DNA from: Acidobacteriota bacterium
Lineage (GTDB): Bacteria > Acidobacteriota > UBA6911 > RPQK01 > JAJDTT01
Assembly (NCBI GenBank): GCA_965209055.1
Contig: OZ242374.1
Span: 3,200,001-3,264,000, forward strand
DNA: 64,000 nt
Direction: 5' to 3'
The notes below the pieces were generated by a model that did no database searches, was not told the origin of the DNA, and saw only the letters and a list, made by a program, of their open reading frames with translations. Below, one piece after another: positions 546 through 44,560 of this stretch. The first letter of the stretch is position 1. Every line of letters starts with the position of its first letter. Made by a program: the position numbers and the translations under genes.

Positions 546-859
546 GTTCTAACTAGGAAATTCGTAAGTTGCTGATAAATAAGGAGTAGGAGATATTCTC
601 AAGCCCCGGTGTCGTCATGGTCAGTTGTTACGCAATGGGTGACAAATCAAAGAAAACCAGCGACCCACGCAGAAACGAAGGCTTGAAACATGCGCCGAAA
701 ACAGGAAAATCAGATTCTGCTCCCGAGGTCATGGACGACAACTCCTTGATCTGGAATCCGGTTCTACACGTTCAGTGTGACACAGCCAACTTACCTCAGG
801 GGACTACCGGTTTCTGCCGAGCAGGTCCTGCGGGTGAGGGAAAGAACGTGACTGTTCCC

Positions 860-1016
860 TTCACGCTGGAAGATTTTCCCGAGATCTTCGGGGACGAGAT
901 CGAGCGGACCGTCGTCTGTAAGGGCGGCTCCGATCTGAACTCGCTCTCCGGCAAGGCGGTGCGGATGCGCGTGGTGCTGAAGGACGCCGACCTCTGTTCC
1001 ATCCGGTTCCACAGAC
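860..1016 (+). pseudogene. C-terminal fragment of a glycoside-hydrolase-like protein
   Basis: FTLEDFPEIFGDEIERTVVCKGGSDLNSLSGKAVRMRVVLKDADLCSIRF resembles a common C-terminal domain. It has no start and begins right after a palindrome at about 838-863. Confidence 0.45.
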
Positions 1017-1019
1017 ACG

Positions 1020-1798
1020 ATGACGGTGCCCGGTATGACGAGACACGGTTTCCTCCTGTCGCTCCGGTTGGCCGCCCACTCCTGCGGCAGTCCTTCCGAG
1101 GCCCCGAACGTCGCCTCGGAAGGCGAACCGACGAAGGAGCGGCAGAGCCTCTACTACGACTTCGTCGCCATCCAGTCGCACAGCTACATGGACCAGGGCG
1201 CCAACGGCATCTACCTGTTCAACTTCCGGCACGACCCGCGTAGCGGCTGACCGAGGAGGAGTTCACCGGGGTGCTGAGCGAGTTGGGAGCGCGCGAGACC
1301 ATGGCCGGCAAGGACAGGGTCTACGCCATCAACCCCACGGCGCACAGCGGCGGGCCGTTCTATCACGGCTCCGATCCGGCTCTGCTGCCCATCGTATTGG
1401 ACCGGGTGAAGCAGAAGTTGCGGCTCCATCTGGGACCCGTAGCGGAGGACGAGAAGGCCAGCCTGCGTTTGAGCGTTTACACGGCCAAGGCGGGGAAGGG
1501 AACCATTCTCCGGGCGCGTCTCAACCACACGCTGTTGCCTGAAGTCGAACGGGAACGGGACTGGTTCCACTTTCAGGTTCCGGCGGGTGTGGCGCTCAGC
1601 GGAATGAATGAGGTGGGCCTGATCTCGAACATCCTCGCCGCCGGTCCCTTCGCGGGTCTGATCGGTCCGCCCAACGCGGATCCTGCCGAGTTCCTGAACC
1701 AGGCCTTCGGCCGCGTGAAGAACATCATCCAGCGCGACCAGGATCCGGTCGTGGTCCACCAGATCTTTCTGGAGATCAACTACGCTGACGCGTCCTGA
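1020..1798 (+). pseudogene. Internally deleted and frameshifted secreted protein, possibly DUF187/GH10-like
   Basis: TAT-like start (MTRHGFLL), then SYMDQGANGIYLFNF, a frame change near 1240, and a C-terminal part in ORF 1271-1798. Confidence 0.5.
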
Positions 1799-1912
1799 CG
1801 GGCCTGGACTTCTGGCTCCGGGTCCACGACCGGCGGGCGGGAGCCGCGCAGGTCGAAACGTCAATGCGTTGGAAACAACTGTTTTGGCCGGGGCCGTTGT
1901 GGTTGCCGGTCG

Positions 1913-2257
1913 TTAACGTTCATCAGAATGAAGCATGGGGCGGGCGCCGCGGCGACCTTCGTCCCGGGTTGCGACCGCCGTAGCCGGCTGAATGCCGGCT
2001 ATCAGCCAGTTCCTGTCCCCCGCCAGCTTTCGGAATTCGCACTCGACCTGGATGCCATGCCAGAACTTGTCCGACTGACCGAAGAAAGCGCCAAAACGAA
2101 TCGACATGGGCGGAGTGATCGACCGCCGGCCGTGGACGATCTCGTTAATCGCTCTCGGAGAAACACCGATGGCGCGAGCCATGGCATTCTGTGAAATTCC
2201 CATTGGTTTGAGGCATTCCTCCAGCAAAACCTCTCCGGGAGTGATGGGCTCTTGCAT
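1913..2257 (-). CDS. higA: HigA family antitoxin (HTH)
   Basis: [43 protein letters not shown]...FW..Q signature; downstream of higB. Confidence 0.9.
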
Positions 2258-2288
2258 CCCTATATCCTATAACGTTATAGGGAGTTCT

Positions 2289-2567
2289 TCAATGGTAATC
2301 CATGATTGCCACCTGCTCTGGTCCGGCATCGGTCCACCTGAAAACAATGCGGCACCGCTTGTTTACGCGAATGGAATGAAAACCTGAAAGACGACCCTTG
2401 AGAGCTTCAAGCCGGTTGCCAGGCGGGACAGCAAGGTCCCATAGCTCTCGGGCCTGATTCATCTGGATCAGTTTTCGTAGAGCGACTCGCGAAATAGCCG
2501 CGAACCGTCGATTGGTTTCCCACTCGAAAAGCTCTTTGGTGTCCTCATCCGAGAATGATTGAATCAT
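2289..2567 (-). CDS. higB: HigB/RelE family toxin (plasmid maintenance killer type)
   Basis: MIQSF.DEDT...DLAVPPGNRLEALKG...HSIRVN...RIVFRW...IMDYH. Confidence 0.9.
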   Translation of the reverse strand: MIQSFSDEDTKELFEWETNRRFAAISRVALRKLIQMNQARELWDLAVPPGNRLEALKGRLSGFHSIRVNKRCRIVFRWTDAGPEQVAIMDYH

Positions 2568-2648
2568 GGAATCCGTGTAGGCCACAGACATTCCTGCCTG
2601 TGCAGGTAGGCGATGACCCCCTTCCTGTCCACGGCAGGGCGCATGGCT

Positions 2649-2885
2649 TTACAACTCGGGTAGTTGCCTGGAGCCGGCTCTCCTAGCTTCGTAGATCATC
2701 AGCGTGACCTGCTCCGGGTCAGGCAATTCAACCCAACCGGTCGTTGACTCACAGAGTCCCACGACAGCGCCGTCCTGCGATACGATGTTCTCGATAACCA
2801 CGGCGACTTCCTTACCTTTTTCAACGTTGAACCTTTCCTGAGGAACGAACCCAACCTTCGTAAACATGATCCATTTGGTTCTCAT
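2649..2885 (-). CDS. Orphan, diverged AF2212/DUF104-like antitoxin
   Basis: Same length as, and alignable with, the antitoxin at 37739-37975 (FVPQE..EGKEV...DPEQ...IYEAR.AGSRQ.PEL); no cognate vapC adjacent. Confidence 0.6.
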   Translation of the reverse strand: MRTKWIMFTKVGFVPQERFNVEKGKEVAVVIENIVSQDGAVVGLCESTTGWVELPDPEQVTLMIYEARRAGSRQLPEL

Positions 2886-2971
2886 TGCAATCAGTCCATT
2901 CTCTTGCGCCTTGCGCCTTAGCAATGTGGGGAGGCCGCGCGGAGACCAAGAAAGGGACAGCGTACTTCTCC

Positions 2972-3125
2972 GCGCGTGTCAACCACACCGTCACACCCTG
3001 CTGCCCCAAGCCAATCGGCACCGGGATTGGTTCCACTTCCAGGTTCCCGTCGGTGTGGCGCACTGCGGAATGAACGACGTGGGCCTGATCTCGAATGTTC
3101 CCGCCGTCAGTCCCTTTCCGGGATG
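2972..3125 (+). repeat. Degenerate copy of about 1514-1660
   Basis: gcgcgtgtcaaccacac...gattggttccacttccaggttccc...gtgggcctgatctcgaa matches the 1271-1798 ORF region; preceded by a palindrome at 2950-2971. Confidence 0.85.
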
Positions 3126-3336
3126 CAGTGACTGAAAATACGGTGGTCGATATCAGCTACTGTCTGGAAGAATTGACGTGTTGGTGCCAGTTGCGTATAA
3201 AATTGGATTGTCCTGGCTGACGGACATTATCAATGTGACAAATACATGCAACGTTTGCGTCCGAATCTGGTCTGGAGACCAGTGCCTGATCGGTGCACCC
3301 GGAGTGCCGTCCCCTTGAATTAGATATGGTGGAAAA

Positions 3337-5052
3337 ATGGAATACAGCCCAATTCGAGTTAGCGACATCATTCGACAGATTAACCGGGAACTCTACCTAC
3401 CAGCCATCCAGCGGGAGTTCGTATGGGACAAGAGCCGAGTCGAGCGTCTGTTCGATTCAATTATGGCCGACTTTCCCATAGGGTCATTCCTTTACTGGCG
3501 GCTTGAGCAAAAGAATAAGGACCAGTGGCCGATCTACGAATTCATTCGAGATTTTGACAAAGAGCATCCGCATAATCCAGGTGCGAACATGAATGGAATT
3601 ACGAAGGACATTACCCTCGTACTGGATGGCCAGCAGCGGATCACCTCGCTCTATATCGGACTGCGGGGCACCTACAGGTATTTCTACTATCGTTGGCGAA
3701 AGACTAAACTATACCTAAACCTGCTCAAACCGCCGGTTTCTAACGAAGAAAATCCTGAAGAGTTGATCTACGCCTTTTCTTTTCGAGAAAGCGATGAGCC
3801 AGACTCAAATACCTCACAGATCTGGTATCCGGTCGGCCGGATCTTGGACTTTGATGACGCCGAGGATGCGAAGTCGGATCCGGTCATAGAGAGGCAATTA
3901 GCCACGTTGTCAAGAGATCAACGGAAGAATGCCAACAAGATGATTGGGCGCTTACACAGTCGCATCCATACAGCGTTGGTAGGCAACTACTTCAAGGAGA
4001 GGTCTCAGAACTACGACAAGGTTTTGCAGGTGTTCGTGCGGGCAAATTCAGCTGGACAACCTCTTGCATACTCTGATCTCTTGCTTGCTACTGCTACTGC
4101 AAAGTGGGAAAGACTGGATGCGCGCAGCGAAATCCATGATTTCACTGACTCTCTAAACAGAATAGGCAACGGGTATCGTTTTGGTAAGGACTTCGTGCTG
4201 AAGGCGTGCCTTTACCTCAGTGAAGACTTACCGATCCAATACAAAGTCAAGAACTTCACAAAGAAAAACCTACGCATCATCGAAGGAAATTGGGCCCAAA
4301 TTAAGGAGTATCTTTCGGCGACCGTGCGTCTCGTATCCCGGTTCGGTTTTAGATCCCATAATATAGTGGCTCCATTGGCATTGCTTCCGATTGCCTTCTA
4401 CCTCATGAATCGTGGTAACTCATCTTTTGATACCTCCTCAAATGCTGAGGACGCGGACATCCAAATTGCCATTCGTAAGTGGTTCACGTTCTCGACCCTC
4501 AAGAACGCCTTTGGCGGCTCGTCTGACACGACATTGACAAGATTGCGGGAGGTTTTACGTATCTGCGGACGAACGAATCCATTCCCCGTAGATGAGCTGT
4601 ACAAATCACTCGGAATCCAGCCAGTTCTGAGTGATGAAGAAATTGAGCACATCCTAGGTCCCCGGTATAGATACCAAGGGCGTTATACGAATCTCGTCCT
4701 TTCTCTGCTCTACCCTGATCGAGACTGGAAGGATGCTGTTTTCCACGAGGACCATATCTTCCCTAAGTCCAAGTTTCAGGTTAGAGCATTAAAGAAGCGG
4801 AAGTACGGCGAGGCGAAGGTGCGTACGTACATGAGGAAACACAATACTCTACCTAACCTTCAATTACTCACTGATTCGGAAAACTTGGCGAAGAATGCCA
4901 CCCCCTTTGAGAAATGGATTCAGACACGAGACGTTAATTTTCGTAAACGCCACCTGATTCCCGATCTCAATGGCGTTTATTCATTCGATGCTTTCGATGA
5001 TTTTTGGAAGGCACGTGCGGCGTTGATAACGAGGGCTCTAAAGAAAATTTGA
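3337..5052 (+). CDS. GmrSD-like type IV (modification-dependent) restriction protein, DUF262 plus C-terminal HNH-like domain
   Basis: LPAIQREFVW, LDGQQR and FVRANS.G.PL (DUF262); FHEDHIFP...NLQLL (DUF1524-like). Confidence 0.88.
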   Translation: MEYSPIRVSDIIRQINRELYLPAIQREFVWDKSRVERLFDSIMADFPIGSFLYWRLEQKNKDQWPIYEFIRDFDKEHPHNPGANMNGITKDITLVLDGQQRITSLYIGLRGTYRYFYYRWRKTKLYLNLLKPPVSNEENPEELIYAFSFRESDEPDSNTSQIWYPVGRILDFDDAEDAKSDPVIERQLATLSRDQRKNANKMIGRLHSRIHTALVGNYFKERSQNYDKVLQVFVRANSAGQPLAYSDLLLATATAKWERLDARSEIHDFTDSLNRIGNGYRFGKDFVLKACLYLSEDLPIQYKVKNFTKKNLRIIEGNWAQIKEYLSATVRLVSRFGFRSHNIVAPLALLPIAFYLMNRGNSSFDTSSNAEDADIQIAIRKWFTFSTLKNAFGGSSDTTLTRLREVLRICGRTNPFPVDELYKSLGIQPVLSDEEIEHILGPRYRYQGRYTNLVLSLLYPDRDWKDAVFHEDHIFPKSKFQVRALKKRKYGEAKVRTYMRKHNTLPNLQLLTDSENLAKNATPFEKWIQTRDVNFRKRHLIPDLNGVYSFDAFDDFWKARAALITRALKKI

Positions 5053-5104
5053 ACACGCTGTTGCATAAAAACTCTTGCCAGGGAGTTTTCTCCTGGAGAT
5101 CTTT

Positions 5105-5492
5105 TCCGGAGGAGGCGTCAGGCACCTTCTCTCCCCGCCATCCAGTCGCACAGCTACGTGGACCGGGGGGAAGGTGGAGTCGTACATGAGCCTCATCTAC
5201 GACATCAAGACTGGTGGACGCAGGAGAGGGAACAGTAACCTTCTCTCGCAACCAGAGGATGGGAGCCGCGCGGATCAAAGCCTCAATGAGTTGGGGACTA
5301 TTCTTGTAGCAGCGACGCTTTGTGGCTGCCCGTCGTTACCGTTGACCAGAATGCGTCACGGGTCGATCGCCGCGGAGGCCTTCATCCCAAGTTGCGACCG
5401 CCGTCGCCGGTTGAATGGCGCTGATCAGTCGTTTCCTGTCCCCGTTAGCTTGCGGAAGTCGGATTGGGAGAAGTGGACAGTCACTTTCTCTG
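5105..5492. repeat. Mosaic of degenerate copies (about 1166-1200 and 1838-2035) separated by three palindromes
   Basis: 5136 cgccatccagtcgcacagctac equals 1166 onward; 5261-5458 parallels the higA 3' end and adjacent intergenic DNA; palindromes at about 5108-5133, 5223-5248 and 5467-5490. Confidence 0.8.
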
Positions 5493-5545
5493 CGATGTGT
5501 CGCCAATAGCAGGTCGCCGCTAGTTTCTAGTAGGATAGATACGAC

Positions 5546-6361
5546 ATGACTGGCAGATCGAAAATCGAATGGACTGACATGACGTGGAACCCCGTGCGGG
5601 GATGCACAAAGATAAGTCCTGGTTGTAAGCACTGTTACGCTGAGAGGTTTGCTGAACGTTTTCGCGGCGTTCTTGGTCACCCGTACGAGCAGGGCTTTGA
5701 TCTCAAGCTGATACCCGAGAAACTCCTTGAACCCCTCAAGTGGACTTCTCCGAGAACGGTATTTGTGAATTCTATGAGCGACCTCTTTCAGGATGGTGTA
5801 TCTGATGAATACATCGAATCAGTTATTAGTGTTATGAAACTGGCAAACTGGCATATCTACCAGGTTCTAACAAAGAGGTCAGTACGGATGCGTGACTTCT
5901 TAAACGGCCCGAGATTTGATCGGACGGGAGCAGATCATATCTGGTGGGGAGTCAGTGTTGAAGATCGAGAGTATGGAATGCCTCGCATTGAACATCTCCA
6001 GGCTATAGATGCCCGAATCCGGTTCCTTTCGATCGAACCGCTTCTGATGGATGTCGGACGACTGGATCTGGATGGCATAGGATGGGTCATTGTTGGAGGT
6101 GAGAGTGGTCCTGGTGCCCGCCGCATGAGCAGGAAATGGGTCGAATCAATTAGGCATCAATGTGAGGATGCTGATGTTCCCTTCTTTTTCAAGCAGTGGG
6201 GTGGATTTCAGAAGTCCAAGAAGGGACGTTACCTTAACGGCCGGACTTACGACGAACTGCCAGCTAGGATTATCTCTCCGATTCCTGACCGGGCCGAACG
6301 CGGGAGACTCCTTAAAATATGGAGTGCAAAGCTTTTCGATTGGCAGAAAGAGCCCACTTAA
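5546..6361 (+). CDS. DUF5131 / phage Gp37Gp68 family protein (three-Cys motif)
   Basis: IEWTDMTWNPVRGCTKISPGCKHCYA, FVNSMSDLF, LTKR, SIEPLL, WVIVGGESG, FFFKQWG. Confidence 0.93.
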   Translation: MTGRSKIEWTDMTWNPVRGCTKISPGCKHCYAERFAERFRGVLGHPYEQGFDLKLIPEKLLEPLKWTSPRTVFVNSMSDLFQDGVSDEYIESVISVMKLANWHIYQVLTKRSVRMRDFLNGPRFDRTGADHIWWGVSVEDREYGMPRIEHLQAIDARIRFLSIEPLLMDVGRLDLDGIGWVIVGGESGPGARRMSRKWVESIRHQCEDADVPFFFKQWGGFQKSKKGRYLNGRTYDELPARIISPIPDRAERGRLLKIWSAKLFDWQKEPT

Positions 6362-6394
6362 CGAACCTGTGGTGGTTGGAGATAATGGAAGACT

Positions 6395-7285
6395 GTGGGA
6401 ACCGATGAAAATTATACTCGACGTCTTTTCGGCCGACCGTCCGACTGGAAGGGGGAGCAGCCTAAGGAGCGGCTTGTCCGACGTCCAAAGTATCCCCTCT
6501 GGACGGAAAGTAAGGCGAAACTGATCGAACACTATCTACATTACTTTGTTTTCATTACAAAGCACGGAACCTACATCGACGGCTTTGCTGGCCCTCAGAA
6601 GAAGGAGTCACCATCTATGTGGGCAGCAAAATGCGTGTTAGAAAGTAGGCCTCGTTGGTTGCGCCATTTTCACCTCTTCGAAATCGATCCCACCGGTTAC
6701 GAAGCCCTCCTTGATCTAAAGGACAGTCAGCCCGGAAGGGACATACTTCGACGGGAACCCAAAAGGGACGTAAGAATTTATTTGGGCGACTTCAACGACC
6801 GCATCGCCGAAATCCTTGATCCCGTCCGAATTTCTCCGAAAGAAGCGGTATTCTGTCTGTTGGATCAACGGACCTTCGAATGTCGCTGGTCGACGGTGGC
6901 GTTAATTGCAAACTACAAATCTTCCGGATACAAGATCGAACTTTTCTATTTCCTGCCCAATTCCTGGCTAAACAGAGCGATATCCAATCTAAACGAACCC
7001 GATTCGGTGTTGTTGGAATGGTGGGGGCGAAAGGATTGGAAAAAACAGATTTTGAGGAAAAAGGACCTACGCCGTTCTGAGGCGTTCGTAGATCGTTTCA
7101 AATGTGAACTCGGTTACAAATCAGCCAAGGCCTGGCCAATTTATGAACGACACGGCGAGGGCCGAGTGATGTATTACATGATTCACGCGACAGACCATCC
7201 CGAAGCTCCTAATCTTATGAGCAGGGCCTATCACAAAGCAGTGACCCCGATCAGGTCCGCTGACCAGAAACACTTGTTCCAATAA
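6395..7285 (+). CDS. tcmP: Three-Cys-motif partner protein TcmP (methyltransferase-like fold)
   Basis: WTESKAKLIEHY, YIDGFAGP, Y.GDFN, FCLLDQ and YYMIHAT.HP motifs; directly after DUF5131. Confidence 0.8.
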   Translation: MGTDENYTRRLFGRPSDWKGEQPKERLVRRPKYPLWTESKAKLIEHYLHYFVFITKHGTYIDGFAGPQKKESPSMWAAKCVLESRPRWLRHFHLFEIDPTGYEALLDLKDSQPGRDILRREPKRDVRIYLGDFNDRIAEILDPVRISPKEAVFCLLDQRTFECRWSTVALIANYKSSGYKIELFYFLPNSWLNRAISNLNEPDSVLLEWWGRKDWKKQILRKKDLRRSEAFVDRFKCELGYKSAKAWPIYERHGEGRVMYYMIHATDHPEAPNLMSRAYHKAVTPIRSADQKHLFQ

Positions 7286-7635
7286 TCAACGTAGTGCAAC
7301 CTTGTTGGCGGAATTACGAAAACTAGTATTGCACTCTGTCTAAATGCTCCTTGCAAGGCTCTCTCGCCTTATCTAAATTAAGCTCCCGGCAACCAACGTG
7401 AATCCGTGGAAATGTCCGAACGTGGGATAGCCCTGAGATCACTTTGACTTGGTATCGAGCCACGCGTACATTGGGGTGTGTTACGCTCCCCGGCGGCATT
7501 ACTGCCGGGCTTTATGACCCCAAGGAGTCGGAATCGGCCCCCGTTTTTTATGCAGGGGTCCGGAAACCCCTTTACCCTGCTCGACATGACGGGAACTATT
7601 GTCTAATTTATGTATGGGTGGTGAATAATCTGGGG

Positions 7636-8364
7636 TCATGGCTTTTTGAACTCGACTGATCTTTCGTGCAATAAGCGTTTATATCCGTTCAAATCTGTCT
7701 TTGCTTCACATCCAAAGCAGTAACAAGCTGCGATACTTGCCATGAGAAAGAATACAAGAACGGAAAGAATCCCAATGGATCGAAGAAGGAAACAGTGAAA
7801 GTTCAGTAGCATGAGCAATTGCACAAGAGACCAGAAACAAAAGAAAATCCATATGAAAATGGTATAGAGACTAATAATCAGATTGATCTTGGACACGGAA
7901 TAAGGTGCTGGACCAAGCCAACGTTTTTCCTCATCTAGATTCTTCCTTGTAGAGTACAAACGGTAGAATTTCTCCTTTAGACACTTCTCCAGTCTATCTA
8001 CCTGTGCTTCCCAATTCTCTTGCCAGAACTTGCTGCCCTTGTTGACAAAGTACCAACCTAGTGAAAATACGAAACCCAAGTTCGCGACAATGAAAGCCAG
8101 GGTCTGTCTACTTGGCTTATGTAAACCATTCGCCGATTGGATTGCAAAATAGGCCACAAATGCTGCTGCAATGAGTGTCCAGAAATAGGTGGTCCGCTTC
8201 CAGTAAAGCTCGATCTCGAACTTCCTGATCTCGTGGGCTCGGTCCAAAAGCTCCTTGGTTCTGAGTTGATTTGATCTAGTCTTCCTTACGAGATCACGAA
8301 TCTCACACAGCAAGGATGCAATACTTCCTAATCGCTTAGACGTTTGACGTTCCCAAGAGTTCAT
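7636..8364 (-). CDS. RipA-like oligomeric membrane protein, candidate anti-phage effector
   Basis: IRKFEIELYWKRTTYFW, GSKFWQENWE and PYSVSKIN motifs, with about 4 hydrophobic segments. Confidence 0.7.
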   Translation of the reverse strand: MNSWERQTSKRLGSIASLLCEIRDLVRKTRSNQLRTKELLDRAHEIRKFEIELYWKRTTYFWTLIAAAFVAYFAIQSANGLHKPSRQTLAFIVANLGFVFSLGWYFVNKGSKFWQENWEAQVDRLEKCLKEKFYRLYSTRKNLDEEKRWLGPAPYSVSKINLIISLYTIFIWIFFCFWSLVQLLMLLNFHCFLLRSIGILSVLVFFLMASIAACYCFGCEAKTDLNGYKRLLHERSVEFKKP

Positions 8365-8381
8365 TGTTTCCTCCTTACACT

Positions 8382-9332: not shown

Positions 9333-9364
9333 CGTATTGATCCGTTCTGTTTTTCTGAGTACCC

Positions 9365-35642: not shown

Positions 35643-35999
35643 GTGATGTCAGATCCCAAGGAGTTTCGATTCGGAGGCTTCCTTATTTCGCTGCTGGCCT
35701 TCTTGGTTACGGTCGGCATCGCAATCTACGGGTTAGTCAAGGCTTTCAACGCCTTTTGCAAGTGGAACAAGCAGGATCGAATCCCGGAGAAATACAAAAA
35801 CTCTCAATCGGCACTCAAAGGAGACGATTTCTCAAATCCGTCCAAGCGGTTGACGGGGGGGCGTTGCGGCGCCACAGGCTTGTGGAGATCGAGTTGTCAG
35901 CACCGGGAGCAAAAGCTCATCCGCTCAGGAGAAACGTTTCCACTGTGTTGGCATTGCCGTCGGGGCGTGTATTGGAAATTGATTCGACCGGGCAAGTAG
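35643..35999 (+). CDS. Small membrane-anchored protein with C-terminal zinc-ribbon-like (YjzC-like) motif
   Basis: N-terminal TM segment; G..C..TG.W...C....I..GETFP.C..C....WKL. Confidence 0.6.
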   Translation: MMSDPKEFRFGGFLISLLAFLVTVGIAIYGLVKAFNAFCKWNKQDRIPEKYKNSQSALKGDDFSNPSKRLTGGRCGATGLWRSSCQHREQKLIRSGETFPLCWHCRRGVYWKLIRPGK

Positions 36000-36226
36000 G
36001 GAACCTCGATTGCCCACGTATACGGAGAGTGAGATCGGTAGAGAAGGTGACAGCCCTTTCGCCGCGTGCGCTCATTAAAGTCTGGACCATCTGACTTCGA
36101 TGGTGAAGAATCATCCCGAATGTGGATGAGAAGGTCCTGCAATTGGCGGCATCGACCTCCATATTCCAAAGCGTCTGGGTTAATCTTCTTGCCCAGGATC
36201 CCTCGTTCAACATCTGGAGGCGTTTG

Positions 36227-37201
36227 ATGAACCGACTCGCCGTGCTGTCTTTATTCGCTGTGTCAACGGTCGTCGCCAGCGACCATCAACTGAAACCGGT
36301 CCGGATTGCCGTCCCGGTCGACGGGCACATTCACCCGGCGGCCTGCGTCACCCACTCGGGGACGATCGTCGTGACGTACGGGCGGGTGAATCACGTGGAC
36401 CTGCGCATCACTCGATCCTCGGACGGAGGAAGGACTTGGTCCGAACCGGTTCCGTTCGTCCATACCGTCGACAAGACCTATTACCCGGGCTCGCTGACGA
36501 CACTGAGCGACGGCCGCCTGGTGCATTGCTGGAACCGCTGGGATACGCCGGTCACTCAGAAGGAGCCACGGTCCGTCCTGTACTCGCTGTCAAGTGACGA
36601 AGGAGTCTCGTGGAGCGACCCGCAGCCGTTTCCGCGTGATCCCGAAGTCAGATCCGTCACGCGGCACCCCGTGACCGAACTGGAGTCAGGACAGTGGCTC
36701 GTTTCGTTGATCGACCGGACGTTCGTGTTTGATCCGGCCACTTCCAAGGCGACACCGTTCGGCGACGGCCGGGATCATGGGATGATCCCGATCGTGCAGA
36801 CACCTCAAGGCACGTTCGTCAGCGGCGCCGGCCTCCGATCGACGGACCACGGCACGACGTGGACAACCATCGAAGGCTTTCCGGACATCAGCACGCAGGG
36901 CTGGCGGCACGAAATGGTCGTTCTGAAAAACGGCTGGCTGCTGGCCTCGGAGATTCTCGGGCCGGGCTTTGGCGGGGAGCGCATCCGCTACCGCATCTCG
37001 TACGACGACGGGCAGACCTGGGATGGAGTATTCGAGTACTACAATCCTGGCCGCGCCATCAACGGCCGGGCCTGTCCCCGAACGGTGCAGCTCGACGACA
37101 AGACGATCGGCGTGGTCTTCTACGATATCGACAAGGATCAGGAGGGAGGACCGGGCGTGTTCTTCCTGCGAATCCCGATCGCGAAGCTGGCCGCCCGGTA
37201 G
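36227..37201 (+). CDS. Secreted sialidase-like (BNR/Asp-box) protein
   Basis: Asp-boxes SSDGGRTW, SSDEGVSW, STDHGTTW, SYDDGQTW; signal peptide. Confidence 0.85.
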   Translation: MNRLAVLSLFAVSTVVASDHQLKPVRIAVPVDGHIHPAACVTHSGTIVVTYGRVNHVDLRITRSSDGGRTWSEPVPFVHTVDKTYYPGSLTTLSDGRLVHCWNRWDTPVTQKEPRSVLYSLSSDEGVSWSDPQPFPRDPEVRSVTRHPVTELESGQWLVSLIDRTFVFDPATSKATPFGDGRDHGMIPIVQTPQGTFVSGAGLRSTDHGTTWTTIEGFPDISTQGWRHEMVVLKNGWLLASEILGPGFGGERIRYRISYDDGQTWDGVFEYYNPGRAINGRACPRTVQLDDKTIGVVFYDIDKDQEGGPGVFFLRIPIAKLAAR

Positions 37202-37341
37202 GAGGGGGGACAGTCTTGTCCCCCTCTTCACTGGCGAGATAGGGAGAGACTACCTCTCTTCGTCTCGACTGTCCCTGCCGAGGGCCCATTCGCAGGTCTG
37301 ATCGTTGACTCGAGACTAGGTTTTCAATCTGGACATCCACT

Positions 37342-37734
37342 TCACACCGAGATGATGAGTAGACCATCCAATCGCTCAAAATGCCGACGATTGTTGGTGA
37401 GTAGCGTGAGCCCGTAATTTATGGCGGTGGCACCTATCATTAGATCGAAGTCGCTGATAAGGGTTCCCGTCGCCCTCAAACGACTCCGTTCCCTGGCGAA
37501 TGTGCGGCAAATATCTTCATCCAATGGCACGACATGAATCCGGTCAAGTACGTGCCACAGAGCTATTTCGGTTGCTTCCGGATCGTAGGAGCCGAATACG
37601 CCCTCGTTCAGTTCGGCGAGTGAGATAATGCTCAATCCGAGGCCGGCTGGTTCAAATTCCTGGAGACGGCTGATTACCTGAGCGCGGCCGTGCAGATGGT
37701 CGATGACCCAATCCGTGTCCACCAAATATCGCAC
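37342..37734 (-). CDS. vapC: VapC PIN-domain toxin
   Basis: YLVDTD, SLAEL..G, DLMIGATA...LTLLTNNRRHF. Confidence 0.9.
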   Translation of the reverse strand: MRYLVDTDWVIDHLHGRAQVISRLQEFEPAGLGLSIISLAELNEGVFGSYDPEATEIALWHVLDRIHVVPLDEDICRTFARERSRLRATGTLISDFDLMIGATAINYGLTLLTNNRRHFERLDGLLIISV

Positions 37735-37738
37735 GGAA

Positions 37739-37975
37739 TTACAATTCCGGCTTTTGCCTGGAACCGGCAATCCGAGCTTCGTAGATCTTCCGCTTGAGCT
37801 GTTCCGGATCGTGCATTCCGATCCATCCGCCAGCCGAAGCGCCGAGCGAATTGATGGCGCTACCCGGGGATATGATCTCCCCTATGGACACGACTACTTC
37901 CTTGCCTTCTTCGAGGTCAAGGCTCTCTTGCGGAACGAACACACCCTTTGAATACTTCGCTTTGATCTTTCTCAT
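37739..37975 (-). CDS. AF2212/DUF104-like antitoxin
   Basis: IKAKYSKGVFVP.E.LDLEEG.EV.V; directly upstream of vapC. Confidence 0.85.
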   Translation of the reverse strand: MRKIKAKYSKGVFVPQESLDLEEGKEVVVSIGEIISPGSAINSLGASAGGWIGMHDPEQLKRKIYEARIAGSRQKPEL

Positions 37976-38190
37976 TGTTACCGGTCTTTTCCATAAGTCC
38001 TTGATTTGAGACGTCTTAGCAATCTCGGAGTCGGGGACTCTGAATCCACCGTCTGCCAAGACGATACCAGAACGCCGCCAGACACGCCGAATTCCGGGGA
38101 GCGGATGCCGACCCGGCACCTTCTTCGCACCAGTGGGAAAAGGCAACAGTCACCTTCTCCGCCATTGCCGATTGCGAATTCCCGCACGGG

Positions 38191-39636
38191 TCAAGGTGGC
38201 GTGGCCGGATACACGAGTTCGCCGGCCTTGTAGACGGCGGCCAATAAGCGGGTGTTGCGGATGTCCGACAGTGGATCCGCCGTGAGCACGACCAGGTCGG
38301 CCAGCTTCCCGGCTTCGACGGTTCCGAGCTGATCCTCCAGACTCAGGCCCTCGGCGCCGTTTCGGGTCGCCATGACGATCACGTCGGTCTCGTCGATGCC
38401 CGCCTGGACCAGGAGCTCCAGTTCCCGATGCAGACTCACGCCCGGCGTTATCCAGGGCATTCCCACGTCGGTCCCTACAGTCAGCCTCACTCCCCCCTCG
38501 TGAAACATCCGCACGATCTGGAGTGCGACGGGGAATACGTCCTTGCCGGACGTGAAGGCCCGAAGGATTCCCATGGGGTTGGTGAAGACGAACGGGTTGC
38601 GATGCCGCCAGTCCGGACCCCATAGCGCCACGACCGAGGGCGGAGCCCGCTGAGGCTCGAGTCTCTCCAGAACCTTCGGATCGTCACCGAAACAGAGGCT
38701 CTCCATCACGACCAGGGTGGGGTCGACCGTCACGTCGTTGTCAACCAGGGCGGCGATCAGGGAGTTCATCAGCTCGCCGTCCAGCTCCACCAATTCAAGC
38801 CAACGGGCGTAGTATTCGGGGTAGGGCAGTGCCCTCAGTTGGGCCCGGTGCCTTTCGGGGACCAGCTCCCACGTCGGCCCTTCTCCGCCGCTGTGGACCA
38901 GGGAGTCGATTCCCAGCCGCGCCGCCTGGGTCCAGCTCGTTGCCCGGATGTGGCCGGCGACCTTCAGACCGAGCGCGTGAGCCTCCTCGATGGCGGCGGC
39001 CATCAGCTCCGGGGTCACGTCCCAGTACAACTTGACCATGTCGGCGCCCGCCGCAGCCTGTTGCCGAACCACGTCCCGCATCTCGTCCGGTGTCGCCACG
39101 GGCACCGTCCAGTCGAATCGGCTCGGAGACCCGTCGATGAAGGCGGCGCCGGTAATCATCCGCGGCCCGCGAACCCGCCCGGCCGCGATCTGGTCCCGGA
39201 GCTCGACGCCTGCGCTTTGCGCGGCGCCGGGGCTGCGTATCGTGGTCACTCCGAAATCGAGCAACGCCTCCACGGTCTCGATCCGAGCCTTGGGGTGAAC
39301 ATGGACATGCATATCGATGAATCCTGGAACCACATAGTGGCCCGAAACGTCTCGTCGCCGTGCCGAGTTGGAGAAACGGAAATCACCCGCGTTGCCGACC
39401 CTGAGGATTCGGTCGCCGGCCACCACGATGACGCTGTCCTCGCGCGGTTCGGAACCGGTGCCGTCAATCAGAGTGGCGCCCTCGAGAACAAGAAGCCCCT
39501 CGTCCACAAGCGCCTCAGCCGGTTCACCGCACGCAGCACCAGCCAGGACAAGTGCGAGGGCGATTGGAATAAGTGGACTGCTCAGCGATCCGGCTGCTGC
39601 TGACATCGACGGCCTACCGTGGCGGCATTGGATCAC
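38191..39636 (-). CDS. Amidohydrolase family lipoprotein
   Basis: VVPGFIDMHVH, GTD.G, GTVEAGKLADLVVL; lipobox AGAAC. Confidence 0.9.
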   Translation of the reverse strand: MIQCRHGRPSMSAAAGSLSSPLIPIALALVLAGAACGEPAEALVDEGLLVLEGATLIDGTGSEPREDSVIVVAGDRILRVGNAGDFRFSNSARRRDVSGHYVVPGFIDMHVHVHPKARIETVEALLDFGVTTIRSPGAAQSAGVELRDQIAAGRVRGPRMITGAAFIDGSPSRFDWTVPVATPDEMRDVVRQQAAAGADMVKLYWDVTPELMAAAIEEAHALGLKVAGHIRATSWTQAARLGIDSLVHSGGEGPTWELVPERHRAQLRALPYPEYYARWLELVELDGELMNSLIAALVDNDVTVDPTLVVMESLCFGDDPKVLERLEPQRAPPSVVALWGPDWRHRNPFVFTNPMGILRAFTSGKDVFPVALQIVRMFHEGGVRLTVGTDVGMPWITPGVSLHRELELLVQAGIDETDVIVMATRNGAEGLSLEDQLGTVEAGKLADLVVLTADPLSDIRNTRLLAAVYKAGELVYPATPP

Positions 39637-39789
39637 ATTTTTTCCAAGATGGCCGGCGTACTTCCGTTAGGGGGGAACATCCCCTCTTCACTTGAGCCTC
39701 GCGGAGAAAGGGGTAGTCCAATTCTCCCGGCCAGACAAGGATCTTGACTCCGGGATACTCATCAATGGTAACATATAAGAATCCATATA

Positions 39790-39820
39790 GTGATGATAGA
39801 GATCAGGGAGTCCCCGGTCT
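39790..39820 (+). pseudogene. N-terminal stub of a RelE/HigB-like toxin
   Basis: MIEIRE start typical of toxins paired with the downstream antitoxin; the rest is absent. Confidence 0.35.
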
Positions 39821-39882
39821 CCGAGGGGTCGTATTCAAAGTCGCTACCTCCTTGGTTCGTAACGACGGGAGACGTGAAAACC

Positions 39883-40200
39883 ATGCCATTGACACGAGAC
39901 TTCAAGGAAACGATTCAGGCGCGCATCAAAAGCGATCCGGTGTTCGGCGAAGAACTGCTCAAGGAAGGGATTGAGTGCTTCCTTTCGGGTGACGTGGATA
40001 CCGGGAAGGCGGTGCTACGCGATTACATCAACGCCACGATCGGCTTTCAGGCGCTTGGCGGATTGACTGAGAAATCTCCCAAGAGCCTGATGCGGATGTT
40101 CGGTCCCAAAGGCAACCCCCAAGCCCGAAACCTTTTCCGAATCATCGGTTTCCTCCAGAAACAGGAGGGGTTGCGCCTGAAGGTGGACGTGATTCGCTAG
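39883..40200 (+). CDS. HTH DNA-binding antitoxin-like protein (orphan)
   Basis: MPLTRDFKETIQAR...GKAVLRDYINATIGF..L.......KSLMRM.GP.GNP.ARNLF. Confidence 0.8.
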   Translation: MPLTRDFKETIQARIKSDPVFGEELLKEGIECFLSGDVDTGKAVLRDYINATIGFQALGGLTEKSPKSLMRMFGPKGNPQARNLFRIIGFLQKQEGLRLKVDVIR

Positions 40201-40249
40201 CCGGGCCGGGAAAGGGACGGTCCACTTCTCCCGTACCCGTGACGTCAGG

Positions 40250-40580
40250 CTACCTCTTGTCGGTCAGCCGGCCGGCCAGATATTTGTGGATAACACTCGA
40301 AAGCAGCGTCTGATAGGGGATCCCTTCCTCCCTGGCCCGCGAGTGAGCGAGCTAGAAGTCACGCTCCGTCATCCGCAGATTCACTCGCTTGGTCTTGTTG
40401 AACGTATCGCGAGCCGCCTGGCGGGCCACCTCAACCTCGCGTTCGGCGCCAGGAGCGGAGCGCAAGTCACCCCGCTCGAATCGGTCGAGAATGTCGCGCT
40501 CTTCGACGCTCAAATTGTCGCTCACCATGGCTGCCTCCTTCGGTAAGCCCTCGTCGCCTTTCGGCTGGGAATACTCCTCT
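40250..40580 (-). pseudogene. Decayed BrnT/BrnA-like TA pair: antitoxin 40250-40528 with internal TAG, toxin reduced to a C-terminal stub
   Basis: KTKRVNLRMTERDF*LAHSRAREEGIPYQTLLSSVIHKY with TAG at 40352-40354; upstream stub FLERSIPSRKATRAY. Confidence 0.75.
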
Positions 40581-40731
40581 CCAGAAAACGAGCGCCGTCA
40601 GCCCGCGTCACAAAATACAATAGGAGGGCGGACATTCCTGTCCCCCTCTTCACTTGTATACTCGACCGCACAGTTGAGCCGGGCGCCAACTTCGGCGCCC
40701 GCCGCACCGTCACGCAACCGAGGGGAAATCC

Positions 40732-41941: not shown

Positions 41942-41953
41942 TTCTTGGCGGCG

Positions 41954-42166
41954 TCACTCCTTCCGTGTCGCGACGGACCAGAGGTAGAGAACCATCCCCG
42001 TTCCGACCAGTCCCGCTCCCAACGTCAGGAACAGGAACAGGGAAACCGGATGGTTCCAGAACAGCGTGCCCAACTCCACCGCAATCCCGGCCGCGATCAG
42101 CAATCCGGCAAGTTGCAGGCGGCCCGCGAATCCCGTCCGAAAACCCAGCGACCGAATCCAGCTCAC
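41954..42166 (-). CDS. Small 2-TM membrane protein of the cytochrome operon
   Basis: GTGA overlap with the upstream gene; two TM segments. Confidence 0.65.
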   Translation of the reverse strand: MSWIRSLGFRTGFAGRLQLAGLLIAAGIAVELGTLFWNHPVSLFLFLTLGAGLVGTGMVLYLWSVATRKE

Positions 42167-42780
42167 GGCTTCGCCTCCGGGTCCCAACGCCCGAACCGGT
42201 CCAGCTTCGTGACCTCGTGAATCAGGTTGTGGCACATGAGGCACGACTTGGTCCCGGAGATCAGATCGGATCGAAATCGCAGGTGTGCCGGGAATTCCTC
42301 GAAGGACCTGGCTCCTTGGTGGCATTCCAGGCAGGCCCGGTTCTCATACGGCTCGTAGAGCTTCACCGGGTCGGACCACGAGCCCAAGACGCTGTGCCAG
42401 ACATGTCTCACGCCGCGGATCTTGTCGTCCACGTCTCCGAACATGGTGTAGCTCGTGTGGCAGGTGTAGCAGGCCTTGTCGGCGGGGATGAGCTTGTTCT
42501 GGAAGTGAGCGGCGGGAAGGAACCGGGGATGGTCGATGAGCAGGCTCTCCCCGTAGGGCTCGATAGCGTGGCAGGAGAGGCAGAAGTCGGTCGTCTTGGC
42601 CTGCTCGTAGTGCCGGTCGGCGCCGCCCAGGATCAGGAGCCCCGGCATTGCGAAGAGGGCGACGAACGCGAGTATCCTGCCCCCGACGGCGTCGGTCCAT
42701 TCGGGCCGGCGGGCGAATGCCGCGATCAAGGCGATGGTTGCGAGTCCCGACAGGCTCAGGAGGATGACGTCGCCAGTCAC
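42163..42780 (-). CDS. NapC/NirT-like membrane-anchored tetraheme cytochrome c
   Basis: CLSCH, CYTCH, CLECH, CLMCH; N-terminal TMs; T..FC motif. Confidence 0.85.
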   Translation of the reverse strand: MTGDVILLSLSGLATIALIAAFARRPEWTDAVGGRILAFVALFAMPGLLILGGADRHYEQAKTTDFCLSCHAIEPYGESLLIDHPRFLPAAHFQNKLIPADKACYTCHTSYTMFGDVDDKIRGVRHVWHSVLGSWSDPVKLYEPYENRACLECHQGARSFEEFPAHLRFRSDLISGTKSCLMCHNLIHEVTKLDRFGRWDPEAKP

Positions 42781-44129
42781 TCGATTGGGGTCCTCACGGT
42801 CGGATGATGTTTGCCGCGCAGCTCCTGCGCCAACGTCCTGATCTCGGTCAGATCCTGCAGCATCTCGCTCCACCCGTACCAGAGCGCGTAATCCGGATTG
42901 TTATGAAACGTTCCCTGAAACGCGCGCATCCGGTGTTCCAGGTGCATCTTGAAGAGGCGCTGCTCGATGGTCGAGGGGGCGTCGTGGAAAGCCAGCAGGT
43001 CGGGGAAGTCGTAGGCATAGTGGTCCGGCTTGCTCAGGATGCCGTCACGGTAGAGGGAGGCGATGATGCGGATCGCCTCCGCCAGCAGCCGGTCGGTCTC
43101 ACGAATCATCTCATCGCCCTTCTCCAGTTCCGCTCGCACCAGATTCGACGAGTGGCATTGCTCGCAGATCTGGATCATCCGGTCGCGCTCTTTCTGCCAG
43201 TCCTCCTGGGTCAGCCGGGCGACGTCGGCCTGCTTCACCACCTCCAGCCGGGGAGTCGGGTTGCCCTGCGGGTCCAGGACGCCGAGGGCCTGGAGGATGG
43301 TGGCGCGATCGGCCGCCCACTCCGGGTCCTCCGGCATGGGGAGGCGCACGGCCAGGAATCCCCACGCCGTCCTCACCCCATGATCCCCCTTGGGCATGTG
43401 GCACGTCTGGCAGGTGGGGGCCGACGCCTGTTCCGGCAGGGTTCCGGTCTGCTTGAGCATGTGCCGGACGCCGTGTTTGGACGAGGAGTACATCTCCCAC
43501 TGAGGATGGTCGATTCCCATGTGGCAGGTCCGGCAGGCCTGGGGTTCCCGGGCCTCCTTGACCGAAAAGAGGTGCCGCGTGTGGCAGGTGTCACACGACG
43601 CCAGTCCGAACATAACGCCGTCCGCCTTCAGTTGCCGGATCTCTTCCTCGCTCTTGAGCCCGACGCGATGGCAGCCGCCGCAGCCCTTCATCCCTTCGGT
43701 CAGGGCCATGGGGAGCCAATGCGTCGTGGGCATGGCGTTCATGCTGGCCCAGGCCAGGGCGTGCTTGCCCCCTTGGAACTGCTCCGTCTGAATCGGATGG
43801 CAGGTGGCGCAGACATCGGGAGTCGCCGTCTTCACCAGCGCCACGTCCTCCGCCGTCCGATGTTCCTCGCCATGGCAGAGGGAACAGTCCACCCCCGCGG
43901 GGTTGTGACGGCTCAACTCCCAGTCCGTGACGATGCCGGGAGTCACCTCGCGGTGGCACTCGACGCAGTCCGAGGAGGCCTGTTTCACGTCGCGGTCGCC
44001 GCATGAAACCAGGCCCAGAACGGCCAAAGGCAGGAAAAAGAAGGCGCGGCGCAGTCCACCGGTCCCGGTCCGGTCGCGGAGCAACGGCCGTTGGGAGTCG
44101 AACAGCTCTCGAACGCAGAGTCCTGACAC
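42777..44129 (-). CDS. Octaheme cytochrome c lipoprotein, HAO-like family
   Basis: Eight CxxCH motifs; CDTCHTRHLFS..EAR.PQACRTCHMG.DHPQWE.Y..SKHG; lipobox LVSC. Confidence 0.85.
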   Translation of the reverse strand: MSGLCVRELFDSQRPLLRDRTGTGGLRRAFFFLPLAVLGLVSCGDRDVKQASSDCVECHREVTPGIVTDWELSRHNPAGVDCSLCHGEEHRTAEDVALVKTATPDVCATCHPIQTEQFQGGKHALAWASMNAMPTTHWLPMALTEGMKGCGGCHRVGLKSEEEIRQLKADGVMFGLASCDTCHTRHLFSVKEAREPQACRTCHMGIDHPQWEMYSSSKHGVRHMLKQTGTLPEQASAPTCQTCHMPKGDHGVRTAWGFLAVRLPMPEDPEWAADRATILQALGVLDPQGNPTPRLEVVKQADVARLTQEDWQKERDRMIQICEQCHSSNLVRAELEKGDEMIRETDRLLAEAIRIIASLYRDGILSKPDHYAYDFPDLLAFHDAPSTIEQRLFKMHLEHRMRAFQGTFHNNPDYALWYGWSEMLQDLTEIRTLAQELRGKHHPTVRTPIE

Positions 44130-44254
44130 TCGATTCCCTTCAGTAGGGATTATCCCTCATTTCTCTCTTTCGGGTCGCCCCGCCAAGAATTCTCCTCCTA
44201 TTGAGCCGGCTCCGCCCACGTGGTAAATGACTCGGTCATACCAAGGAGGTTCGG

Positions 44255-44524
44255 ATGACCGTGAAAAAGACCGTCAGCTTTACGGATCGCCACCATCGGT
44301 ACCTGTCGGAGAAGGTGGACCAGGGCATGTTTGCCACTCGGAATGCAGTGGCGGCGGCGGCCATCGAACAGATGATGCAGGAAGAGGCCGAGCGAAACGT
44401 GGCAATTTCGGCTTCGGCCGAAGAAATCCGCATGCGTATGCGGACGCCAGTTTCCGAGTATGTGGACCAGGATCACGTTTTCTCAGCCGCTCGCACTCCG
44501 ATTGGGATTGACCCGAAGACGTGA
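44255..44524 (+). CDS. ParD-like ribbon-helix-helix antitoxin (orphan)
   Basis: VSFTD....YL..KV..G.FA....V; GGAGG RBS; no toxin gene follows. Confidence 0.65.
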   Translation: MTVKKTVSFTDRHHRYLSEKVDQGMFATRNAVAAAAIEQMMQEEAERNVAISASAEEIRMRMRTPVSEYVDQDHVFSAARTPIGIDPKT

Positions 44525-44560
44525 CTGTCCCCTTCCGAACAGGTGCTGTCCTTCCCCCGG

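Follow-up and report, generated by a model that had tools for sequence, protein, structure and literature searches.

A REP-like palindrome associated with Y1/HUH enzymes is concentrated in strain-variable zones of an Acidobacteriota genome

A 25-bp imperfect palindrome recurs in the window, i.e., in the whole analysed stretch of 64,000 nucleotides (bases 3200001–3264000 of one 6.08-Mb contig, 62.8% GC), and the homologues of the proteins encoded there carry the source label Acidobacteriota. It was found that this repeat is concentrated in strain-variable zones of the genome that are rich in toxin-antitoxin (TA) and defence genes, and that it is often situated at the borders of indels and of truncated duplicates. 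The motif probably represents a dispersed family similar to the repetitive extragenic palindromes (REPs), which is tied to Y1/HUH enzymes of the type of the REP-associated tyrosine transposases (RAYTs) or of the tyrosine transposases with terminal inverted repeats (TIRYTs), and which coincides passively with breakpoints in plasticity zones. An initial annotation of the window had envisaged an integron-like strand-transfer site, at which cargo is inserted and flanking DNA is copied. Gene capture by the motif was not supported: the offset of the junctions is variable, a polarity is missing, the orientation is mixed, and an unrelated repeat of the same genome (rep3) behaves alike.

Results

The palindrome is a genuine repeat with an invariant head

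With up to three mismatches, the 25-mer proposed in the initial annotation matched three times in the window, compared with no match in 100 shuffles, verifying that the repeat is real. An alignment of 39 motif copies resulted in the consensus GAGAAGGGGACAGTCACnTTCTCT, and the aligned listed sites revealed a near-perfect palindrome that is centred on the A of GAC-A-GTC. The conserved, invariant part is AAGGGGACAGTC, which is called the head in the following. The right arm varies by subtype; it reads …GTCACCTTCTC in the copies of the window and …GTCTGTTTTTCC or …GTCCCGTTCTC in other parts of the genome.

To avoid circularity, a sequence-only model (R1) was built from 32 copies that all stem from parts of the genome outside the window, and the window was scanned with it with filters switched off. 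This independent model recovered most of the 15 sites that had been listed initially: nine had E values below 0.05 (starting at 28028, 5466, 44513, 25278, 840, 30278, 40206, 38136, and 22630), four were marginal (2947, E 0.52; 5227, E 0.64; 5117, E 2.0; 36041, E 2–2.7), and two, 35471 and 39703, yielded no match at E ≤ 10. In the same scan no site with E < 1 was found beyond 44.6 kb, in agreement with the described near-absence of the motif from 45–64 kb. The strands of the copies are mixed within the window.

Throughout the genome 139 heads were detected with at most one mismatch. The reversed pattern was found 16 times, and 50 shuffled patterns had a mean of 35.5 matches, with 141 for one of them. 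Non-coding heads made up 103 of the 139, while 12.7% of the genome is non-coding. The underlying gene calls were based on codon scores and are still crude in low-GC islands; calling of longest open reading frames (ORFs) had been dropped, because it over-called genes (90.5% coding) and put most copies within genes.

In the 39 copies 74.6% of the arm positions are paired, compared with 42–59% when the partner was slid. Shuffling resulted in 74.4% (217 of 500 shuffles as high, scores of 0.166 observed and 0.162 shuffled), and as the shuffled pairing equals the observed one, there is no covariation; an early impression of compensatory changes in the arms was withdrawn after this test. It is the consensus that is palindromic, and this is no evidence for a selected hairpin. 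A terminator scan of 20600–40500 classified none of the nine motif sites as terminator-like (12 sites were called in total, 17.7 were expected by shuffling), and the consensus does not contain a T-run. Judged by eye and uncounted, the copies are mostly single rather than doublets with a fixed spacing. In some clusters every copy is on one strand, and the orientation of the heads relative to the genes differs from cluster to cluster. A replichore bias of the head orientation was not significant (32/27 versus 13/21, p = 0.20, with an uncertain origin and terminus inferred from the skew).

A family of 311-aa Y1/HUH proteins is encoded in the genome

A genome search with the Pfam family Y1_Tnp yielded two genes, L002 (311 aa) and L001, both outside the window. 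Together with the Pfam analysis of the window this bore out that no candidate enzyme is encoded inside it. The L002-type protein has six paralogues in the genome, which share 72–82% amino-acid identity. It matched PF01797 (Y1_Tnp) with 37.6 bits (cut-off 23) and the NCBIfam model REP_Tyr_transpos (NF047646) at model positions 3–145 of 146 (143 of 146 covered, E 4e-14). H63-x-H65 and Y162 are invariant across 65 homologues, and the tyrosine motif reads Y-V-E-L-N-A and not N-P. The C-terminal half, a conserved part of 130 residues, had no match to a Pfam domain at E ≤ 0.01, thus neither to a helix-turn-helix (HTH) nor to a DnaA_C-like domain.

An AlphaFold model had a predicted local distance difference test score (pLDDT) of 88.9; an earlier model, from an alignment of 11 sequences, was unusable (pLDDT 49). 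In a Foldseek search the model matched 4er8_A best (E 1.1e-6, TMt 0.75), which is the REP-associated transposase of E. coli bound to a REP hairpin; the next matches were the TnpA transposases of IS200, IS608, and ISDra2. In a large protein collection 671 relatives were found at E ≤ 1e-10, nearly all of 307–315 aa, some of which bear the JGI name “REP element-mobilizing transposase RayT”. According to the ORF lists, no tnpB gene is situated beside the enzyme gene.

The head flanks the enzyme genes in this genome and in relatives

All six paralogues have heads upstream, with one to four tandem copies about 110–350 bp away on the gene's own strand, and one paralogue has two more heads about 870–930 bp upstream. 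Inverted heads are located downstream of four of the six (one to three copies, 240–370 bp away). The flanking copies all read GGGGACAG or GGGACAG. The search for a Y1 gene with this motif on its flanks, which had been suggested as a check, was thus positive at six loci outside the window, and the suspected tie between a REP-like palindrome and a RAYT-type Y1/HUH enzyme was supported. The head is presumably the recognition site of these putative endonuclease-transposases.

The 311-aa family is present in 28 of the 41 genomes searched (G000 included), and all eight genomes of the same genus have three to 12 matches each. The heads flank the enzyme gene also in other genera and families, where their strands were read by hand, and the core is slightly altered where the identity of the protein drops to about 56%. 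The exact 12-mer head has 22–104 copies in each of the eight genomes of the genus and 57 copies in G023, the enzyme of which is 76% identical, compared with zero or one copy in six sister-genus genomes (enzymes 45–57% identical), at most 11 elsewhere, and 0–2 for the controls. The window subtype is confined to the genus, with 14–76 copies in eight of eight genomes and none in six of six sister-genus genomes (reversed control 0), and a copy close to this subtype was found beside a paralogue in G004 only. The tallies include one unpublished genome, G016, on which no statement rests. One paralogue lies in a block that is collinear with the sister genome G001, so that this copy, at least, has remained stable after the two genomes diverged.

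Some arrangements of the motif were observed in addition. Outside the window, tandem arrays of 18 and five exact GGGGACAGTC cores with a period of about 25–50 bp are located at 1751934–1752488 and 1733436–1733589 of the genome, about 10 kb from one Y1 paralogue, and far larger arrays exist in G023. G029 has eleven exact heads, mostly as inverted pairs 50–75 bp apart, similar to REPINs; the 311-aa protein has no match there at E ≤ 1e-10. In L041 (G002:C1:228001–240000) at least seven copies lie on one strand between about 4900 and 8150 with a spacing of about 480–700 bp; this locus contains an exact tandem duplication of 697 bp, and its called ORFs have no Pfam family.

The repeats are concentrated in plasticity zones

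The palindromic derivative is dispersed at about 95 loci in the genome, and these are not evenly spread. The dispersion index of the heads in 50-kb bins was 2.33, compared with a maximum of 1.46 in 500 random placements, and the median GC content around them was 0.619 versus 0.631. Clusters were found in the window and its flanks (3.18–3.28 Mb) and at 1.26, 2.0–2.07, 2.77–2.80, 3.72–3.75, and 4.74 Mb. According to Pfam, the other clusters contain genes for OLD-type AAA/TOPRIM, GmrSD-SLFN, SIR2-HerA, Eco57I-type methylase, and ResIII helicase proteins as well as PIN/VapB, ParE, MazEF, HicB, and DUF3800 genes, among ordinary genes. The orthologous region of G004 is motif-rich, yet it has mainly ordinary accessory genes. 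Because of this mixture, “plasticity zone” is a better term than “defence island”.

The comparison with G001 revealed the connection with variable DNA. Around the window, 185 kb are collinear with G001 (about 90% identity), and 36.7% of this stretch is unaligned. Of its 13 head loci, 12 are situated inside non-aligned DNA or at most 40 bp from it, compared with an expectation of 37%; when the loci were tallied by hand with a looser annotation, the result was 16 of 18. The same test yielded four of seven for pal2, a GTAG-tagged hairpin, and six of eight for rep3. Thus, both the uneven dispersion and the enrichment at accessory DNA speak against the ordinary, evenly spread extragenic repeat that the initial annotation had named as the outcome that would refute its view. 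In G001 itself, eight of the nine motif copies with E < 0.02 lie in G001-specific DNA, and the ninth represents the empty site of an insertion in the present genome.

The assertion that the motif lies at borders between host genes and cargo held in part. Pfam and synteny with G001 confirmed it at the indels at 22638, 30300, 35486–36147, 37227–38180, 40614, and 44524. The large replaced blocks 1585–12006, 12868–15163, and 18494–19517 have no detectable motif copy at their borders.

Edges of truncated duplicates lie close to palindromes of several families

Self-BLAST of the window revealed edges of duplicated segments at 860, 2966, 5131, 5242/5261, 25308, and 28068, each 0–15 bp from a motif copy, so that all six truncated or duplicated pieces noticed initially were found again. 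The breaks at 860, 25308, and 28068 lie 0, 6, and 15 nt from the palindrome, and those at 2966, 5131, and 5242 are inside its 3′ arm; the distance from the junction to the core is 0–21 nt, and thus the offset is not fixed. The fragment 860–1198, which starts directly at the head, has 85% homology to 3191232–3191570 of the genome. Its junction is situated in a 95%-identical block common to G001 and is therefore older than the split of the two genomes. The fragment 2966–3122 is 77% identical to 1506–1656 of the window, 5131–5211 is 95% identical to 3191532–3191612 of the genome, and 5242–5461 is 76% identical to 3195401–3195620 of the genome and to 1839–2039 of the window. The partner copies of 2966 and 5242 also carry a motif-like stretch, and therefore the motif was duplicated together with its neighbour in these cases.

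The core gene X (20815–22626, plus strand) encodes a protein of 603 aa that belongs to no Pfam family and has 88–94% identity in genomes of the same genus. Its 3′ part recurs twice downstream as 5′-truncated copies, each with a motif ahead of it. X′ (25308–25745) is 88–92% identical to X and has an internal deletion (25308–25382 corresponds to 21045–21119, 88%; 25374–25745 corresponds to 22254–22626, 92%). X″ (28068–28345 plus 29536–30196) is 96–98% identical (98% for 28068–28345 against 21705–21982) and is split by an insertion sequence (IS) at 28343–29539. X″ and the X gene of G001 are 96.4% identical over 278 bp, slightly more than the latter and the full-length X of the present genome (93.7% overall). 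This hints that the additional copies may be foreign DNA from a related strain rather than local duplications.

For a genome-wide test, edges of low-copy duplicates with high-scoring segment pairs (HSPs) of at least 150 bp within 30 bp of a locus were counted. They were found at 13 of 97 head loci, compared with 10 of 286 random non-coding positions (odds ratio 4.3, p = 0.001), but also at 16 of 151 rep3 loci and 14 of 106 pal2 loci. Therefore, the association with edges is real, yet it is not specific to the motif family. A first version with all HSPs of at least 70 bp had been uninformative, because abundant short repeats gave edges at 15–20% of the random positions. Genome-wide a polarity was missing: the homologous segment was on the head side in 10 cases and on the tail side in 11, after three window loci had been dropped because of nearby multi-copy IS elements. 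In the window alone the truncated pieces had seemed to adjoin the head side.

A form without 10.2 kb is present in the sample

As empty sites in the reads had been suggested as a further check, contigs from four runs (X20–X23) of one sample were inspected; about 90% of the sampled words of 21.5–30.4 kb were present. Each of the four runs contained a contig in which 22630 is joined to 32834 and 10,203 bases are omitted; its left joint lies exactly at the outer edge of the motif at 22631. Its depth was 16.1, 3, 7.9, and 7.7, compared with about 70, 16, 24, and 22 for the main path. In the vicinity (20500–40400 of the window) minor contigs with several substitutions per 100 bases were found at about a quarter to a third of the depth, indicating that the sample contains a second related strain. 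Most simply, the joint is the empty site of this strain; it marks the start of the block and is no proof of excision. A second joint, from 40400 to 30197 in one run, lies at the end of the stretch examined and was disregarded.

Motif copies and cargo along the window

The first copy (840–862, minus strand; R1 12.5 bits, E 0.0079) adjoins the gene fragment 860–1198, and a degenerate, marginal copy (2947–2971, plus strand; 6.9 bits, E 0.52) lies beside the fragment 2966–3122. Between the GmrSD and DUF5131 genes, 5108–5493 (plus strand) contains an array of a motif, an 81-bp fragment, a motif, a higA-like fragment of about 200 bp, and a further motif, and R1 scored these motifs at 5117 with E 2.0, at 5227 with E 0.64, and at 5466–5493 with 19.7 bits and E 3.5e-5.

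Four nucleotides past the stop codon of X, a copy at 22630–22655 (plus strand; 10.2 bits, E 0.045) forms the left border of a 10.2-kb strain-specific block, and the homology to G001 stops at 22638. In G001 X is followed almost directly by pal2, the motif, and a TonB receptor gene, where about 10 kb intervene in the present genome. The first cargo block (22656–25277, GC 0.49–0.55) has three ORFs, one of which encodes a SEC-C motif protein (Pfam); it lies between inverted motif copies and is missing from G001. The next copies are located at 25278–25303 (minus strand; 17.4 bits, E 1.9e-4), 6 nt from X′, and at 28028–28053 (minus strand; 27.2 bits, E 1.2e-7), 15 nt from X″; the latter has the highest score in the window. 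Apart from one small gene family, no counterpart of the cargo 22656–28027 was found in 40 relatives. At the end of the X″ homology a pal2 copy is situated (30199–30225, plus strand), and further pal2 copies are located at 37201–37227 and 40623–40649. The motif copy at 30278–30298 (plus strand; 12.1 bits, E 0.011) lies at the end of a block shared with G001, which ends at 30300.

A strain-specific insert of 660 bp with an ORF at 35643–35999 occupies 35471–36147 and has decayed motifs on either side (35471–35492 and 36041–36063). At this site G001 has 21 bp and one intact motif (L014:2092–2116, 22.8 bits), so that 35471 is the decayed counterpart of an intact G001 copy at the same place, although its R1 E value is above 10. 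A PIN/AF2212-like TA module (37228–38179, minus strand; Pfam) lies between pal2 at 37201–37227 and a motif at 38136–38160 (10.6 bits, E 0.034). It is absent at this site of G001, which has 85 bp there, and a 78%-identical module is present at another intergenic site of G001 beside pal2; the two modules (about 78%) have the coding region in common, and not the motif or the flanks. The listed site at 39703–39728 (plus strand), not detected by R1 at E ≤ 10, occurs only in the seed alignment. A copy at 40206–40233 (minus strand; 11.6 bits, E 0.016) is inside the block 39863–40614 that is conserved in G001, and the last one (44513–44535, minus strand; 18.9 bits, E 6.4e-5) lies between convergent genes. 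At the latter site G001 has a 497-bp ParE-like insert, which interrupts the core after GTGA. According to Pfam, no recombinase or transposase accompanies the inserted TA modules in the window.

Other repeats and mobile elements

Pal2 has the structure GGGGGGACA-NTCN-TGTCCCCC followed by TCTTC and occurs in about 51–106 copies genome-wide. Its spread is more even than that of the heads (dispersion 1.49), and it is found at three indel borders in the window. The copy at 30199–30225 was the sole repeat element called by the terminator scan of 20600–40500. L001 (1141470–1144703 of the genome) encodes a separate classical RAYT of 252 aa, which scored 77.4 bits with NF047646, just below the cut-off. 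It is flanked by the unrelated repeat rep3 (GGAAACCGCCGCTCC-like; four matches, 0.25 expected), which has about 151 loci, with copies, e.g., near 48855, 49176, and 62381 of the window. Therefore, two Y1/repeat systems exist in the genome, L001 with rep3 and the 311-aa family with the head.

Three IS families are represented in the window (28343–29539, 10360–12009, and 31461–32853), together with an IS fragment (9364–10051). The family that splits the X copy (28343–29539) has at least 20 copies in the genome, and the other two have four to five and three copies. One window IS is located just upstream of an N6-methylase fragment (12126–12899) of a type I restriction system. At 48843–49404, at the 5′ end of a TonB-receptor ORF of 1467 aa, a unit of about 80 bp is repeated in tandem and matches hundreds of dispersed places in the genome. 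Counting of 12-mers revealed a CRISPR array-like repeat of about 32–37 nt with 58 copies in the genome, and 1197 occurrences of the all-G 12-mer, which indicates long G runs somewhere in the assembly.

Discussion

Passive coincidence and the evidence that weighs against it

According to the reading that is regarded as probable here, the enzymes would bind the head and would cut and rejoin DNA there, and short non-autonomous copies would be seeded by them. Copies would last where insertions are tolerated, and there the near-identical palindromes of 25–30 bp may act as preferred points of breakage, slippage, recombination, or insertion. They would thus finish at the borders of indels and of truncated duplicates without a dedicated step of cargo capture.

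Several observations weigh against this reading. The enzyme scored 52.7 bits with NF047646, below the equivalog cut-off of 80, and neither the single protein nor a profile had a PDB match by sequence. The subtype of the window (…GTCACCTTCTC) flanks none of the six paralogues of this genome, which carry …GTCTGTTTTTCC-type variants. Pal2 has the GGGGACA core of the motif and therefore is maybe not an independent control. The presence of the motif in strain-specific DNA of both genomes fits a travel with the cargo at least as well as a passive accumulation, and the latter does not obviously predict that inserts repeatedly have a copy at one end beside a resident palindrome. In Pseudomonas, REPs are described as marking the stable core and avoiding recently acquired regions, with “REP deserts” at islands (PMC3390384), and therefore the concentration observed here is not explained by an ordinary REP.

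Active shuffling, target sites, and expression signals

Alternatively, cassettes might be shuffled actively: TIRYT enzymes would cut at the head and join other DNA to it, and segments bracketed or ended by the motif would be excised, inserted, and copied, similar to an integron or to a one-ended rolling-circle element. This is unlikely, in spite of several fitting observations. The cargo 22656–25277 is bracketed by a plus-strand and a minus-strand copy, the same layout as at the enzyme genes, and copies occur in strain-specific DNA of both genomes. Three indels relative to G001 (35486–36147, 37227–38180, and a 1.44-kb TA insert of G001) have a motif near one end and adjoin a resident palindrome; one intact motif is present at the empty site of the first indel, and the 497-bp insert of G001 broke the core after GTGA. 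The truncated X copies begin 6 and 15 nt from a motif, and the form without 22631–32833, the left joint of which coincides with the edge of the motif, was present in all four runs. Against shuffling stand the junction offset of 0–21 nt, the 10 head-side and 11 tail-side edges genome-wide, and the mixed orientation both in the window and relative to the genes. Rep3 of the classical RAYT is equally enriched at edges. No counterpart of cargo blocks 1 and 2 was found elsewhere, the recurring PIN/AF2212-like pair shares neither motif nor flanks, several large replaced blocks lack a motif at their borders, and the joint in the reads is explained most simply by a second, related strain with an empty site there.

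It is likewise doubtful that the multi-copy TIRYT enzymes use the GGGGACAGTC head as a joining site to excise, duplicate, and re-insert TA/defence cassettes and pieces of neighbouring genes. This would explain why the repeats occur almost only in strain-specific DNA in two genomes, the copy at one end of inserts, and the single copy kept at an empty site, and, if true, defence islands would be built by an HUH endonuclease in the manner of an integron.

As a further alternative, the palindromes could be targets and not agents, in or beside which IS elements, integrative islands, and TA modules insert preferentially. Some IS families that insert into REPs are known from enterobacteria. Insertions directly beside pal2 or motif copies, the core split by the insert of G001, and the three IS families in the same stretch would fit. 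This is quite improbable, however, as the ends of the window IS elements (10360/12009, 28343/29539, and 31461/32853) do not adjoin motif copies and the inserted TA modules are accompanied by no recombinase or transposase.

Last, a bidirectional terminator, an mRNA-stabilising hairpin, or an operator of a dimeric regulator of acquired genes would be in accord with an extragenic palindrome that often lies just past stop codons (22630, 35471, 40206) and with the arm pairing of 74.6% against 42–59% for the slid controls, but it is very improbable given that none of nine sites in 20600–40500 is terminator-like and the consensus has no T-run, that covariation is missing (74.6% versus 74.4% shuffled, 217 of 500), that the orientation relative to genes varies between clusters, and that tandem and inverted arrays around Y1 genes across families are not expected of an operator or terminator.

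Relation to known systems

Tyrosine transposases with terminal inverted repeats (TIRs) instead of GTAG REPs have been described as TIRYTs or TIRtrons by Di Nocera et al. (2013; PMC3733652). According to that description the TIR repeats share GGGGWSAS, an Acidobacteria group is sharply defined, and some species have moderately abundant dispersed TIR families, with single, dimeric, or clustered repeats. As GGGGACAG fits this published motif, the kind of system is already known. In common are a long Y1/HUH protein, the C-terminal extension of which is conserved, and a gene flanked by inverted GGGG[AT][CG]A[CG] repeats, here GGGGACAG. The present family differs in having three to 12 diverged paralogues per genome across the genus, tandem arrays as flanking repeats, and a 25-bp palindromic derivative with about 95 loci that is confined to plasticity zones. 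Quentin et al. (2018; PMC6006769) describe most TIRYTs as TnpA(REP) subclass 2.1, long proteins with a C-terminal extension and, as stated there, no REP-like sequences beside the gene. A C-terminal HTH/DnaA_C-like domain and Y---NP are features of this subclass; in the conserved C-terminal half of the present enzyme Pfam named no domain at E ≤ 0.01, and its tyrosine motif reads Y-V-E-L-N-A. Group 1 RAYTs are characterized by Bertels et al. (2017; PMC5581495) as having merely weakly repeated flanking 16-mers. By these published descriptions the enzyme appears to be of the TIRYT type and may be likened to subclass 2.1 or RAYT Group 1.

With the classical REP/REPIN-RAYT systems (E. coli TnpA(REP), PDB 4er8; Pseudomonas REPINs) it shares the HUH and tyrosine core, seen in the top structural match, a gene bracketed by inverted copies of a dispersed extragenic palindrome, and one paralogue that is syntenic in G001, as for vertically inherited RAYTs. 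Unlike in these systems, the window subtype lacks GTAG, the copies are mostly single by eye, the gene has six copies, and the repeats lie in variable DNA with a lower GC content; the genome holds a separate classical pair, the L001 RAYT and rep3.

IS200/IS605 elements and their transposase-less derivatives have the same Y1 HUH fold. Their recognition sites are subterminal palindromes, and cargo between the ends is in principle movable in trans. In contrast, inverted arrays of one motif and not distinct left and right ends were found here, near-identical gene copies are missing (72–82% amino-acid identity), and no tnpB is situated beside the gene. Integrons with attC and IntI resemble the present case in that short imperfect palindromes border small, strain-variable segments that often encode TA modules, and in that some motif clusters are one-stranded. 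They differ, as the 25-bp site lacks the attC architecture, the orientation in the window is mixed, and the associated enzyme is an HUH endonuclease and not a tyrosine recombinase. Pfam revealed no integrase in the window; IntI was not sought genome-wide. Among the literature matches listed, none treated repetitive extragenic palindromes together with defence islands. The motif thus belongs to a REP-like family of a known enzyme class, which is unusual in living in plasticity zones.

Significance

In the usual description, REP/RAYT systems reside in the stable core genome and are inherited vertically, and islands appear as REP deserts; the TIRYT-type family described here shows the opposite, and its head repeats mark variable TA/defence zones across a whole genus. 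If the enzymes cause this variability, they would represent a new route of defence-island assembly. Otherwise, the repeats can still serve in practice to mark the plasticity zones of these genomes. They also lend themselves well to a study of the function of TIRYT enzymes.

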